Both the position numbers and the translations under genes were made by a program. Of a stretch of DNA of 64,000 nucleotides, positions 65-29,228 are shown one piece after another (the first letter of the stretch is position 1; each line of letters opens with the position of its first letter). Source of the DNA: an uncultured Acidimicrobiia bacterium (GTDB lineage Bacteria > Acidobacteriota > Terriglobia > Versatilivoradales > Versatilivoraceae); NCBI GenBank assembly GCA_963786955.1, contig CAWBAT010000004.1, positions 1 through 64,000 of the forward strand, written 5' to 3'. The notes beneath the pieces are model-generated. The model made no database searches, was not told where the DNA came from, and worked only from the letters and a program-made list of their open reading frames with translations.

Positions 65-312
65 CTAACCTGGATTTTTCCACCACCGGGGGAAAACAGA
101 AACAGTAGAGTAGCGAAACCATTTGAAGTCAGAGCGCTTTGGCAACGTAGGGAACGCTGCGGCGAGCGTCCCCTACAAACAGTTCGACAATTTCTTTCCA
201 CCTCTTCTCTCCTTTGGAAAGAGGAACCCAATAATGAATTATCGGCTCCCCTCGCCCCAACGAGGGAGAGGGGCCCGGGGGTGAGGGGAATGCGGTGCCG
301 GTGGTGAGAAAT
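65..312. mobile_element. MITE-like non-autonomous element (copy A), carries GTAG-type REP hairpins
   Basis: Imperfect terminal inverted repeats GGATTTTTCCACCACCGG / CCGGTGGTGAGAAAT. It is the near-identical reverse complement of 30763-31190 minus that copy's internal insertion. Confidence 0.7.
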
Positions 313-920
313 ACAGTACTCAGTAGGCAAGCCTTTGGCACAGTGCCAGCTGCTCATAGGGGGTCTTAACCGTGGCTTACGAGTTAAGCAGACTCGCAGG
401 GTTGAATTTTGGATACGGACATGGCCGGAATCATGCATTTCACTAATTTTTTCCACTTCATGGAAGCAACCGAGGCGGCCTTTCTTCGGTCGCTGGGGTT
501 TTCGATTTTCCGGGGACCGAAGAAGGGCAAGTGGGATGGCCTAGGGTGCACGCGGATTGTGATTTCAGGCATCCCTTGCGTTTTGAGGATTTAGTGGAAT
601 TCATCTTCTGGTTCGGGAGAAGAAGGAACGAGCTCTTGTTTACACTTTCATTTTTCGTAAGCTCAACGCAATCCCTATCCAAGAAGTAGCCAGAGGCACA
701 ATTATTACAACCTGCGTGACCCATGATCCAGTAACCGGCAAAATCGTGCTGTCCCCATTCCCCTGGACTTTGCCGACAAGATAGAGGTCGCACCCAAAGA
801 CCTACTAATATAAACGCAGTATGTTTTGTGACAATTTCCCCCTCACCTCCAGCCCCTCTCCCTTGGGGAGAGACCTCTGAGGTGATAAGTCAACTATTAT
901 TTGCACAGGAAAATGACAAT

Positions 921-2200
921 TTATTCACAAATGGTCTCCGTGGTTGGAGAGGACAATGCTTCTCCCAGGGGAGACCCACGATGCCGCAAGGTAGCCAGGT
1001 AATATTGTTCGTCGTAAGGTGTATGCTTCCTTCCAACAGCGGAACATGATCCGAAGCCATTTGTAGCCCAGGGCGCGCAGTGCCGCGTGATGAGACTTGC
1101 CGGCCGCGCGGAGGCGGTCATAGCAGGTCCGCGCCCACAGGGACCGGCGAATCGACTGTTCCGAGAATTCCTGGACGCTTTGGCGCAAGAATTTCGGACA
1201 AGCCCACCGCCAATGGACCCGATGGGACTTGCCGCTTTTTTCGGTGACTGGGGCGATGCCCGACAGGAGCTGTACTTCGCAGGCCAAGTGAAAACGGTCC
1301 CGATCCGATCCGAACAAAGTCAGGAGGCGGGGGCCCAAAGCCGGCCCGGCCCCGGGGAAACTGTGGAACACATCGTAGTCGGGATGCTTTTCAAACAGCT
1401 CTTTGATTTGTTGGTTAAATTGGGAGATCGATTCGATCAGGGTCCGAACCTGGCACATCAAGGCCTGCACCATCAGGGCTGAGGCCCGGGTGACGGCAGG
1501 GTCTCGCGTAGGGGTTGAGCCTGGCGAATTTCTTCCAGCAGTGAGTCGATCGACCGGCCCGAGGGGCAACCGTGATGGCGGTAAAATTTCTCCAGAGTGG
1601 TCCTGGAACTCCGGCGCAGCTGATCCAGACTGGACCACTTTTGCAGAAAATCGCAAGCCCGCAAGGTGTCGGGATCTCCCGCCCAGGACAAGGCTTGAGG
1701 GAAATAGCCTTTCAACAGGCTGGTGACCTCGTTGGTCAGAGCGGTCTTCTGGTTGACCAGCTTGCGTCGCGCTTCGCTGAGCAGGCGCAGGCAGCGGGTG
1801 TCGGGGTCGTCGGGAACCCAAACGCGGAGCACTTAAAGATGCTTCTCCAGCAGTTCCAGCAAGAGCGCGGCATCGGTGGGATCATCCTTGGCGCCACTGG
1901 GATAAGAGGGCTTTGCGAAACTTGGCCAAGGTTAGAAGGTTGACTGGATAGAGCCGCAAGAAGTCCACGTCCATCAGGGCATACAACAAGGCGCCCCGCG
2001 ATTGCTCCAGGATGATGGCTACCGGGCGGCCCCCAAATCGCAGTCGCAATTGCTGGATCCAAGCTTGCAGGCTTTCCGGTTTTTGGTCCACCACTAGATA
2101 TTCGACGGTGACCAGAGCCGGCCGCCCGCAGACAAATGACATGTTGTTGGTCGGCCCAATCTAAACCAATGAAGGCAGCAATTTCAGAATCAGAACTCAT
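921..2200 (-). pseudogene. IS110 recombinase/transposase, multiply frameshifted
   Basis: Fragments in ORFs 1736..2257, 1882..2142, 1473..1832, 925..1821 and 921..1121 give FIGLDWAD, ILEQSRG, SFPGAGP, APVTEKSGKS and RALGYKWLRIMFRCWK. They are colinear with the intact copy at 27516-28817. Confidence 0.9.
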
Positions 2201-2242
2201 GATCTCCTCCCGTTCTAGGATAAAGAGAAGGAACCTCGCCAG

Positions 2243-2374
2243 CTGGGGCCCGCGCAACCCTTATAGGGGAGTCCTCTCGGGGCAGCCTCTGAGAATGCGT
2301 TTCAGCTCCAGCCCCCTCCCGTTCGAAAGTCTCTCCCTGATCGTCGCACGATCGGTGGTTTGTTCGTAACGGGA
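2243..2374 (-). ncRNA. Bridge-RNA-like target-binding and donor-binding loops of IS110 copy 1
   Basis: Target loop 2317-2374 has stem TCCCGTT/AACGGGA with guides CCACC and GGGAGAG matching the flanking target. Donor loop 2243-2311 has CTCAGAGG and CTATAAG matching the element's own ends. The RNA's 5' and 3' ends are unknown. Confidence 0.8.
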
Positions 2375-2704
2375 GGATGGCGGGTGACAACCCCTCCATT
2401 TAATCCCAATTCCCTCAACGAGGGGTATGGTTCTGTTGGCCTTCATGGCTTTTGCACAAAATCCACAGCTTCCACAAAGAAAGAAAAAGAGGCAAAAAAG
2501 AAAGAAACGCTACGACGGCTATTCATATACTCATCCTCGGGCAACCCTGTTGTACCGACTATAAGGGTGGCCAAAAGCCGGGTGAGGGGAACGATTCAAG
2601 GGTGACCCAAAGTGTAACTTTACTTCGTGCGTTTGTATTAGCTAAGATTTAATGGTTGGGCAGCGACGTTTCTGTGCCGCTTGCTCCAGATCGCAAGACT
2701 TCTC

Positions 2705-26948: not shown

Positions 26949-27338
26949 CTTCGAACCTCCTTTTCTCATAGAGTCCATGCAGGGAATTTCCGGTTTCAAC
27001 TCTCTTCTTACACGAAACACTATTCTCCCGGCCCTCCTTCGTCAACCTCAAAAACCAGCGGCCTGAAGGGCCGCCACAATCTAGCCCAGGGCAGAACGCA
27101 GGGGCAAGGCCCCGCAGCGCCGCTCCGGGCTTCGCCCTTCACTCTGCCCTTATAGGTATTCAGAGCACGGTAGTGCGAAGTGAAACGGTTAGCAGTAGTG
27201 GCAGCCTCTCTTTCTTTTTTGCTGCTTTTTTCTTTCTCTGTGGAAGCTGTGAGTTCTGTGGAAAACGGTTTAGGAGCGACAGCAGAAGTCTGGACAGGAG
27301 AACGTACTTGAGTGCAGAGTGGAACACACAACACGCAA

Positions 27339-27480
27339 CGCCTGGCTACGAATAACTTGCCCTCACCATGGCGATGGTTAAGCCCAGAGTTTCGAGCCAG
27401 GCGCTGCACCAGGAGCCCTAACGCATTACTCAGATGCGGTCCCCTGAGGACTCTACTATAAGGATTGCGCCGTTTCCTGG
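27339..27480 (+). ncRNA. Bridge-RNA-like target-binding and donor-binding loops of IS110 copy 2
   Basis: Target loop has stem CGCCTGGCT/AGCCAGGCG with guides TGCCCT and AGCCCAG. Donor loop has CTCAGATG and CTATAAG. Confidence 0.82.
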
Positions 27481-27515
27481 CAAGCGTGTTGAAATTCTGC
27501 TGGGAGGTGATTCTC

Positions 27516-28817
27516 ATGACAACATCCTCTGTTCCGATGGAAAGCCCGATCGTGGCCTATGTCGGTTTAGATTGGGCCGATCAACAACATGTCCTCTGTT
27601 GGCGAGCAGCCGATTCCACTCAGGTGCAGACGGCGGTAGTCCGGCAACGCCCCGAGGAACTCCATGCCTGGGTGGCCGAGCTGCGGCAGCGTTTCCCTGA
27701 AGGCCTGGTAGCCATCGCCTTGGAGCAAAGCCGGGGGCCCGTGATCGCGGCCCTGATGCACTATGACTTTCTGCGCCTTTACCCGATTAATCCCAAGTCG
27801 CTGGCCCGCTACCGAGAAACGTTTTCCAGTAGTGGCGCCAAGGATGATCCCAGCGATGCTGCCCTGCTGCTGGATCTGCTGGTCAAACACCGGGAGCGAT
27901 TCTCGCCCTGGGTACCCGACGATGCTTTGAGCCGACAGCTGGCCTTGCGGGTCGAGCATCGCCGCCACCTGGTGGATCTCCAAACGGTGCTGACCCACCA
28001 ACTGAGCAGTTACTTGAAGCTCTATTTCCCTCAAGCCCTCGACTGGAGCGGCGCTCTCGACACTCCTCAGGCCTGCGATTTCCTCCAGCGCTGGCCCACT
28101 CTCGAAGCCGTGCAGAAGGCCCAGCCTGCTCAACTGGAGAAGTTCTACCACCAGCATCATAACCGCCGCCCGCAGTTGATTCGACAGCGGATCGAGCAGA
28201 TTCAACAGGCCAGGCCCTTGACTCAGGACACGGCCTTGGTGGAAGCCTCCTACCGGATGGTCCTGGCCCTAGTCGCCCAACTGCAGCCCTTAATCGCCAC
28301 CCTGCAACAATGGGAAGTGCAGATCGGCCAGCTGTTTGCCCAGCACCCTGATGCCTTGATCTTCACCAGTTTCCCGGGGGCCGGAGCGGTTTTTGCTCCC
28401 CGTCTGCAGGCGGTTTTCGGTTCGCGCCGAGACCGCTTCGGCGCTGCCCAAGACCTGTTGCAGTTCTCGGGGCTGGCCCCGGTCACCCAACGCAGCGGCA
28501 AATCTCGTCAGGTGCATCGCCGCTGGGCGCGTCCGAAATTCCTGCACCAGAGCCTGGTGGAATTTGCTGCCCTGTCGATTCCTCACTGCGGCTGGGCCCG
28601 AGCCCTCTACCACCAGTTGCGCGCCCGGGGCCACCGTCACTGGGCCGCTATTCGAGTGATTGCTTACAAATGGACACGCATCCTGTTTCGTTGTTGGAAA
28701 GAGCGGGTTCCTTATGATGAATCCAAGTATCTTCAAGCCTTGCAGCGGCGCAATCCTCAACTGTGGGTGGCCAGCCAGCAGCCGCCTCCGCCGCGATCCA
28801 AGAAAAAGGCGGCCTGA
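27516..28817 (+). CDS. IS110 DEDD recombinase/transposase
   Basis: VGLDWAD, ALEQSRG and AKDDPSDA give DEDD. SFPGAG and APVTQRSGKS (catalytic Ser region). RBS GGAGGT. Confidence 0.95.
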   Translation: MTTSSVPMESPIVAYVGLDWADQQHVLCWRAADSTQVQTAVVRQRPEELHAWVAELRQRFPEGLVAIALEQSRGPVIAALMHYDFLRLYPINPKSLARYRETFSSSGAKDDPSDAALLLDLLVKHRERFSPWVPDDALSRQLALRVEHRRHLVDLQTVLTHQLSSYLKLYFPQALDWSGALDTPQACDFLQRWPTLEAVQKAQPAQLEKFYHQHHNRRPQLIRQRIEQIQQARPLTQDTALVEASYRMVLALVAQLQPLIATLQQWEVQIGQLFAQHPDALIFTSFPGAGAVFAPRLQAVFGSRRDRFGAAQDLLQFSGLAPVTQRSGKSRQVHRRWARPKFLHQSLVEFAALSIPHCGWARALYHQLRARGHRHWAAIRVIAYKWTRILFRCWKERVPYDESKYLQALQRRNPQLWVASQQPPPPRSKKKAA

Positions 28818-29228
28818 AGGAAATTGGCTGTGAAAAAAATGTACCGGCTTTGAGGATAAATTTACAAGTAACACTTGACAGACCACCTCAGATGTCTGGG
28901 CTATTTTATCTTGCCCTTTCAGGGCAACGGAAATGTCCAATTTTCTGTCCGGGGCCACCGGATTTGAGCTTTTACGAGCTCTCCGAGACGAAGTCTATGG
29001 AGCTCATCGCGGCCCTGAGGAGCTCAGGTGTAGCCTAGCTTCGGGGTCAAGAAATTACATGACTGTGACATTTACAAACCACTGACGGTTATGATGGAGA
29101 AACTATACCTGGAAGGAGGTGAACTTGAGCGTGTTGGGTATCTACTTTAACACCTTTTGCGTTTCAACCGGGACGAACAAGACGTAGTTAAATGTCAACG
29201 GTCCTAATCCTTAAGGAGGATATTTTAA

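Follow-up and report, generated by a model that had tools for sequence, protein, structure and literature searches.

Putative donor-binding loops of two IS110-group elements carry guides that co-vary with the elements' own ends

IS621 of Escherichia coli, characterised by Durrant et al. 2024 (PMC11208160) and Hiraizumi et al. 2024 (PMC11208158) and solved in structures 8wt6-8wt9, is among the closest described systems to the elements analysed here. As set out in the second of these papers, its bridge RNA has two loops, each composed of a stem, a guide, a stem-loop and a second guide. Two elements found in the window, by which we mean the whole stretch of 64,000 nucleotides that was analysed, resemble IS621 in a series of features: the recombinase combines a DEDD/RuvC-like and a Ser-Tnp domain, and a long left end encodes the RNA; this is predicted to form two pseudo-symmetric loops, in each of which a stem is followed by a 5' guide, a hairpin and a 3' guide; the 5' guides read in the same sense as the left half-sites, and core and right half-sites are complemented by the 3' guides; the core is CT, and handshake bases lie 3' of both right guides (target and donor); a -35 box lies in the right end, and the target is a repeated extragenic element. 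On the other hand, the protein is distant (433 residues for copy 2 versus 328 in the solved IS621 chain), and a leader of about 190 nt with a pyrimidine mirror repeat precedes the target-binding loop. The left donor guide (LDG) pairs here with positions -9 to -2, whereas the 8-nt LDG of IS621 is described as covering left-donor positions 1-7 together with the first core base (PMC11208158). For the right donor, the guide of IS621 is described as discontiguous (9 RNA bases on 7 DNA bases), and the one here is contiguous.

The ISCro4 transposase (9t56), the second solved relative found by sequence, is as distant as IS621 and is likened to the present elements by its protein alone. ISPpu9 and ISPpu10 of Pseudomonas putida, also of the IS110 family, are described as inserting into one conserved many-copy intergenic repeat (REP) (PMC12288879; bioRxiv 10.64898/2026.03.19.712850); these elements have other hosts and other target repeats, and the comparison is one of description, not of sequence. 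The IS1111 group is described as sharing both the recombinase family and the principle of a guide RNA (PMC11208160). It differs in carrying the RNA in a long right end, together with long subterminal inverted repeats, whereas the RNA lies here in the left end. The guide RNA of the IS1111 group is called 'seekRNA'. Set against these systems, the donor-loop finding presented below is a correct but ordinary new example of the published IS110 bridge RNAs and leaves the published mechanism unchanged; as the mechanism, like co-variation analysis of this sort, has been in print since 2024, it is of lower interest than first thought. The supplements of PMC11208160 may already list relatives of these elements.

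The window (C4:1-64000 of a genome of 5.65 Mb in 9 contigs) contains two alignable, diverged mobile elements (alignment A1). Copy 1 (type A) occupies 873..2563 on the minus strand (1691 bp, delimited by junction strings), with the core CT at 2564-2565 and 871-872 in minus-strand reading. Copy 2 (type B) occupies 27151..28895 on the plus strand (1745 bp, delimited by junction strings and a contig joint), with the core CT at 27149-27150 and 28896-28897. The ends of copy 2, a long left one of 365 nt and a short right one of 78 nt, correspond to the layout of the IS110 group, with a structured ncRNA upstream of the recombinase. This recombinase is intact (27516..28817, plus strand) and matches Pfam families PF01548 (DEDD_Tnp_IS110, E 5.3e-24) and PF02371 (Transposase_20, E 8.8e-10); against NCBIfam NF033542 ('IS110 family RNA-guided transposase') it reaches 137.3 bits, 2.7 under the cut-off of 140. 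A phmmer search by sequence recovered as solved relatives only IS621 (8wt6, E 5.3e-8) and ISCro4 (9t56, E 5e-7). The alignment with IS621 spans the C-terminal domain only, the serine of ..QRSGKS.. in copy 2 being aligned with that of ..YESGSS.. in IS621; K-D-D-P-x-D-A of copy 2 was aligned to K-T-D-T-V-D-A of IS621. The combination of a DEDD (RuvC-like) N-terminal domain with a Ser-bearing Tnp C-terminal domain is found in copy 2 alone, copy 1 being broken: its transposase is a pseudogene, the match to which is split into four frame pieces with one TAA.

Elsewhere the genome holds two more type-A copies, both with a broken transposase, a right-end-only fragment of the copy 2 type and a doubly truncated element of a third type; the copy on contig C8, truncated at both ends, is uninformative. 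As the recombinase genes of copy 1 and of its two siblings are broken, their loops are relics of once-active elements, and from their sequences we read these three as dead copies that still display their former code. Copy 2 looks competent and, by analogy, is most likely an active bridge-RNA-guided element. Its boundaries can be seen in empty sites, since paralogues of its target repeat in the same genome read ..CTCTGCC-CT-GGGCTA.. without interruption. Moreover, 27148 is joined to 28896 in contigs of runs X1 and X19 (one a DNA, one an RNA library), with 1747 bases skipped, 2 ambiguous; these contigs most likely represent paralogues of the target repeat. The termini of copy 2 and its 2-nt CT core are independently confirmed by the empty paralogues and the contig joints, the core, as is characteristic of the IS110 group, being single in the empty site, flanking the element left and right and recurring in the guides. 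RNA-library contigs of X19 and X20 cover parts of close relatives of copy 2, one of them with flank sequence, and are uninformative on transcription, ends and strand.

In the loop assigned to donor binding in copy 1, the LDG CTCAGAGG was read from the loop string at 2286..2293 (minus strand), and 2258..2266 on the same strand comprises the right donor guide CTATA (2262-2266), the core complement AG (2260-2261) and the handshake guide GG (2258-2259), the last of which complements the CC at left-target positions -1 and -2 (..CCACC|CT). The right end of this copy (873..893, minus strand) contains the -35-like TTGACT at 888-893, the left donor CTCAGAGG at 874-881 and T at 873. The corresponding features of copy 2, all on the plus strand, are the LDG CTCAGATG at 27429..27436, again read from the loop string, the right donor guide CTATA with the core complement AG and the handshake guide GA at 27456..27464, and a right end at 28875..28895 with the -35-like TTGACA at 28875-28880 and the left donor CTCAGATG-T at 28887-28895. 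An initial sequence-only reading had claimed that the loop word of each copy recurs in that copy's own right end, and the strings were indeed found in their places, CTCAGAGG-T-CT as the reverse complement of 871-881 and CTCAGATG-T-CT at 28887-28897. It had likewise placed CTATAAG in both loops, where we recovered it (copy 1, reverse complement of 2260-2266; copy 2, 27456-27462) as the complement of the left junction CT-TATAG (copy 1, reverse complement of 2559-2565; copy 2, 27149-27155). The same G/T change in guide and DNA end is borne out by the strings of both copies and by the coupling of ..AGG in relatives, and the donor that had been predicted, CTCAGA(G/T)GT-CT-TATAG, is consistent with the junctions and the empty sites. 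As a bare word, CTCAGAKG occurs 5 times in the window versus 4.9 expected from shuffles, and CTTATAG 8 times versus 2.47 expected, a count reached in 0 of 100 shuffles. Since CTCAGAKG is not rare as a bare word, the weight rests on the placement of the words, at homologous loop sites and exact termini, and on co-variation in relatives.

The RNA that would carry these loops was modelled from a consensus fold of 15 left ends (those of the window and of relatives), and a covariance model, R1, was built from that alignment. The fold consists of two modules, each with an outer stem, a 5' single strand, a small hairpin and a 3' single strand, and double changes are present in 23 of the 28 pairs predicted from the 15 sequences. 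R1 locates the bridge RNA core of copy 1, with target- and donor-binding loops, at 2235..2377 on the minus strand (112.2 bits, E 2.5e-26) and that of copy 2 at 27338..27487 on the plus strand (139.9 bits); in the consensus structure of the latter, the target-binding loop extends over 27347-27398 and the donor-binding loop over about 27408-27480. The model was run on the window and on 99 of 116 loci, the 17 omitted being duplicates, near-identical copies or loci without RNA, and gave 102 matches in 100 sources, 98 of the 102 upstream of the gene. In the 102 matches as aligned by the model (90 distinct rows), 28 of the 31 pairs have changed on both sides, and 93.9% of cells pair, versus 26-42% with slid partners, the observed value being reached in 0 of 500 shuffles; as the alignment of the 102 matches was fitted to the model, it favours the structure. 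Single-sequence folds recover the outer stems and mispair the loops (z -2.29 for copy 2, -1.31 for copy 1) and are uninformative by themselves. By analogy with IS621, the RNA would be made, would bind the recombinase and would drive recombination.

A scan of 27100-28950 against Rfam, with E up to 10, matched no bridge-RNA or other relevant family. Membership of Acido-Lenti-1 (Rfam) was considered and rejected, as the match, across the right junction of copy 2, scores 25.6 bits versus a cut-off of 37; genome-wide, 32 sub-threshold matches and none above the cut-off were obtained, and 2 of 14 control genomes also give matches. We take the signal to reflect a similarity of the target repeat, short of membership in the family.

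Co-variation of guides and ends was analysed in 105 related loci, 25 from genomes and the best 80 of 312 metagenome relatives. In order to avoid circularity, right junctions were located without recourse to the donor loop: in 67 rows through the target loop, the right target guide plus core being matched in reverse complement at the expected distance, and in 20 further rows through the -35 box together with the invariant CTCAG. In this sample, which includes the best 80 of the 312, the 8-nt LDG is identical to the last 8 right-end bases before -1 in 83 of 87 rows. After clustering at 95% RNA identity the match holds in 61 of 65 clusters, versus 38.7 on average and 47 at most when right ends were permuted among clusters 10,000 times. 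The misses of L071 and L033 are artefacts of the method: in L071 the first match to the right target guide arose by chance and the second is concordant, and in L033 a two-column shift of the model alignment hides a match of 12 bases between loop and end, seen on direct reading. Real discordance was observed in L056 (guide ..ATG, right end ..AGG, -1 = G), the ORF of which is open, and in L087 (guide ..ATC, right end ..ATG), the ORF of which is split. The right end of L056, about 1335 nt after the RNA, is unlike its guide, and the sister element L070 carries ..ATG and T; the L056 end could be a hybrid end or a recent mutation.

Within the clade, L033 apart, only positions 6-8 of the 8-mer vary, and one guide word is common to 79 of 102 rows. 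Six states in which guide and end are coupled were recovered, namely ..AGG, ..ACC, ..TTG, ..GTC, ..ATA and the wholly different string of L033, and a tree of 84 distinct elements assigns them six separate origins. The ..AGG state, which is the G of the window, arose once and is kept in one group of 10 sequences including copy 1, so that the window's own G/T difference represents a single evolutionary event. Variants of the right donor guide are coupled to the left end in the same manner, as CGATA/TATCG in L026 and GTATA/TATAC in L033. Independent variation of end and guide, which the sequence-only reading had named as the observation that would speak against it, was looked for in these relatives and is not what they display, since guide and end change together in them, as the 83 of 87 rows and the six coupled states attest. 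The sequence comparison supports the assignment of this loop as the donor-binding loop of an IS110-type bridge RNA, with guides that co-vary with the element's own ends.

The target-binding loop of copy 1 (2329..2364, minus strand) has the left target guide ..AACAAACCACC at 2354-2364, followed by a hairpin, the right target guide GGGAG at 2333-2337, the core complement AG at 2331-2332 and the handshake guide AC at 2329-2330; the element is flanked as ..GGCCACC-CT-(element)-CT-CTCCCC... Its left target guide is without one C of its two siblings (ACCACCG versus ACCACCCG), which reads as a further sign of decay. In the target-binding loop of copy 2 (27354..27389, plus strand), the left target guide AACTTGCC with the core CT (27354-27363) is followed by a hairpin, the right target guide AGCCC (27381-27385) and the core complement AG with the handshake guide AG (27386-27389), and the flanks are ..CTCTGCC-CT-(element)-CT-GGGCTA... 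The guides of this loop differ widely between lineages, each matching its own flanks, and among 68 unique pairs of left target guide and left target, 36 have 7-9 nt as their longest exact match. The donor loop, unlike the target-loop guides, is conserved here too, as noted for the family by Durrant et al. (PMC11208160).

Cores other than CT are read in the guides as well. Two of them are carried by both 3' guides and by the right junction: GT (L017/L018), for which the left junction lies outside the contigs, and CC (L015), for which it reads CA. CG (L057) is present in both guides and at the left as well as the right junction. No simple fit was obtained for L015 at its left junction or for L022 at its right one. 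As for the handshake, Watson-Crick pairing with left-target -1 is seen for the base 3' of the right donor guide in 68 of 73 insertions, and with right-end -1 for the base 3' of the right target guide in 62 of 64 clusters, including T:A in L017/L018; the rare variants are coupled for both of these bases. Pairing at the second handshake positions is Watson-Crick in 45/73 and 25/64 and, for the one tested, no better than in shuffles. A bottom-strand handshake, in which guide -1 would track left-target -1, was dropped from consideration (21 of 73 versus 17.3 expected, a value reached by 81 of 5000 shuffles with kinship uncorrected).

Copy 2 lies inside a repeat family of about 300 nt with imperfect inverted ends (window 27059-27150 and 28896-28940), other copies of which are found at C8:619625-619867, C6:1021828-1022064 and C3:291551-291790, among others. 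The sub-threshold match to Acido-Lenti-1 mentioned above is composed of right flank and right end, and the 32 matches of the genome are often inverted pairs about 200 nt apart; the Acido-Lenti-1-like motifs here may be the ends of the REP-like repeat targeted by the IS type of copy 2. Targets of type A, ..CCACC-CT-CTCCC..GGGAGAGG, are hairpin repeats (window 241-290 and 841-870), and an unoccupied type-A site is located upstream of the L032 element.

Taken together, the recombinase, the RNA model and the guide matches lead us to assign a probability of about 0.9, by analogy with IS621, to both copies being insertion sequences of the IS110 group whose movement relies on recombination guided by a bridge RNA. 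The left end would encode an ncRNA with two internal loops, the guides of the first specifying the insertion site. In the donor loop, the 5' guide, which has the sense of the last right-end bases, would pair with the bottom strand, and the 3' guide, which complements the core CT and the first five left-end bases, with the top strand. The donor would be the right end-CT-left end junction of the excised circle, and this junction would also supply a spacer and a -10 box, the -35 box sitting in the right end. As the RNA must pair with its own ends, an end change would survive only with a matching guide change, which would explain the G/T difference between the copies; types A and B would probably not recognise each other's ends. 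In IS621 the position of the window's G/T would be a programmable one, poorly tolerant of mismatch (PMC11208160).

When the ends are abutted with one core, TTGACN lies 17 or 18 bp from the left-end TATAG in 67 of 70 distinct right-end tails, and in the circle junction of copy 2 TTGACA and the left-end TATAGG (27151-27156) give a predicted promoter with 17-bp spacing. The position of TTGACN relative to TATAG places the left donor within the spacer and makes the right donor the -10 box. From its sequence, the promoter would exist only in the circle, and we offer this as a reason for the conservation of the donor. The natural sigma-70 promoter of IS621 is likewise described with its -35 box in the right end (PMC11208160).

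The identity of loop words and terminal words has two further explanations, in which no RNA would read the ends. The repeated words might be DNA sites bound by the recombinase at the termini and at an internal subterminal site, the motif co-evolving with the specificity of the protein. Many transposases do bind subterminal repeats, and each internal word exactly repeats or complements a terminal one, as such sites would. However, these words lie on the single-stranded loop sides of an RNA that has compensatory changes in 28 of 31 stem pairs, and they follow the strand rule of IS621, the 5' side being sense and the 3' side complement, core included; moreover, close recombinases are found with different words (L066 beside L094 and L080, L076 beside L057). 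Across loci, the words of the sister loop follow insertion sites that vary greatly, a correspondence for which protein specificity cannot account, and we hold recognition of the words as DNA sites to be very improbable.

Inherited conservation without current constraint, the ends being kept for the junction promoter, the loop for folding or protein binding and the G/T difference being due to chance, seems to us slighter still as an explanation. It would fit the overlap of the donor with promoter spacer and -10 box, the single guide word of 79 of the 102 rows and the fact that the two copies of the window, taken alone, give one co-varying position. Against it stand six independent coupled changes versus two uncoupled ones, one of the latter in a decaying copy (L087), a concordance that permutation never reaches, and the coupling of core and right-donor-guide variants as well.

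The register in which the LDG meets the donor deserves separate consideration, because the sequence-only reading had suggested, from a guide match that stops one base short of the core, that it differs from that of IS621. Indeed, the constant pairing covers positions -9 to -2, and both copies of the window mismatch at -1 and core (C|TG and C|GG versus T|CT), the base after the LDG being C (2285 in copy 1, 27437 in copy 2) where the right end has T. Pairing of the LDG through the first core base in the style of IS621 was not found in the two copies; it is a feature of IS621 itself and no published requirement of the family. Among 65 clusters, the match ends before -1 in 24, extends through -1 in 26, to the first core base in 14 and to both core bases in 1, i.e., -1 is matched in 41/65 and the match runs through the first core base in 15/65, and right-end -1 is T in 61 of 64 clusters irrespective of the guide base. 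The suggestion holds as far as the difference from IS621 is concerned, the match being one base short of the core in both copies, and fails if it is taken as special to them; as the guide stops before -1 in 24 of 65 clusters, variation of the register is common in the clade. Judged from sequence, the register is unlike that of IS621, yet appears neither unique to the window copies nor outside what is known.

A bridge RNA of shifted register, in which the LDG would read -9 to -2 only and -1 and the core would be read solely by 3' guides and handshake, would represent a mechanistic variant. The 24 clusters in which the match stops before -1, both window copies included, the 15 of 65 in which the first core base is reached and the prevalence of T at right-end -1 whatever the guide base (61/64) speak for such a variant, but -1 is matched in 41 of the 65 clusters, IS621 is itself described as accepting mismatches where the left donor adjoins the core (PMC11208160), and guide lengths are known to differ between families, 86 of which were modelled in a 2026 preprint (bioRxiv 10.64898/2026.10.21.760802, as described there). 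We consider this variant possible and, on the counts above, rather doubtful. Appreciably less likely is a donor code that differs in kind from that of IS621, with a 9-nt left donor and a core-adjacent base that would be deliberately free (unpaired in 24/65) and checked only after strand exchange by the handshake base of the target loop; in this scheme the mirror repeat in the RNA leader and left-end DNA could form a triplex, by which the bridge RNA might be tethered to, or regulated on, its own donor DNA, and types A and B would be mutually orthogonal.

What the elements add is a natural clade of bridge recombinases from bacteria of soil, sediment and wetland metagenomes, with about 65 lineages in a sample that includes the best 80 of 312 relatives. 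The natural reprogramming of the donor at three guide positions and the four different cores may help in choosing orthologues for engineering, as may the contiguous right donor guide and the longer left donor. The genome analysed keeps two related elements with distinct donor and target codes.

A homopyrimidine mirror repeat was noticed by reading the left-end sequence upstream of the target-binding loop (copy 2, 27207..27239, plus strand), with a counterpart in copy 1 at about 2470-2505 on the minus strand. Its form is T3CT3CT6, a spacer of 2-5 nt and T6CT3CT3, 50-140 nt upstream of the target loop. Homopyrimidine mirror repeats are a sequence type that forms H-DNA or triplex. Literature searches on mirror repeats, H-DNA, triplex and polypyrimidine tracts returned no mention of IS110 among the matches listed. 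The repeat is also present in L012, L013, L032, L037-L042, L057, L072, L076, L098, L101, L107-L109 and L113 and is absent from sub-clades with a leader of about 119 nt. Mirror symmetry is kept in variants, copy 2 and L038 having TCTC.. on the left and ..CTCT on the right, and L098, L107 and L113 having T5CT5 in both arms.

Two further arrangements were observed among the relatives. L022 carries tandem target-binding-loop modules (1162-1290 and 1317-1473) with a common right target guide and different left ones, followed by a single donor loop. On one metagenome contig, two different elements of the family (L037:238-387 and 2003-2150) are arranged head to tail, the second starting shortly after the end of the first.
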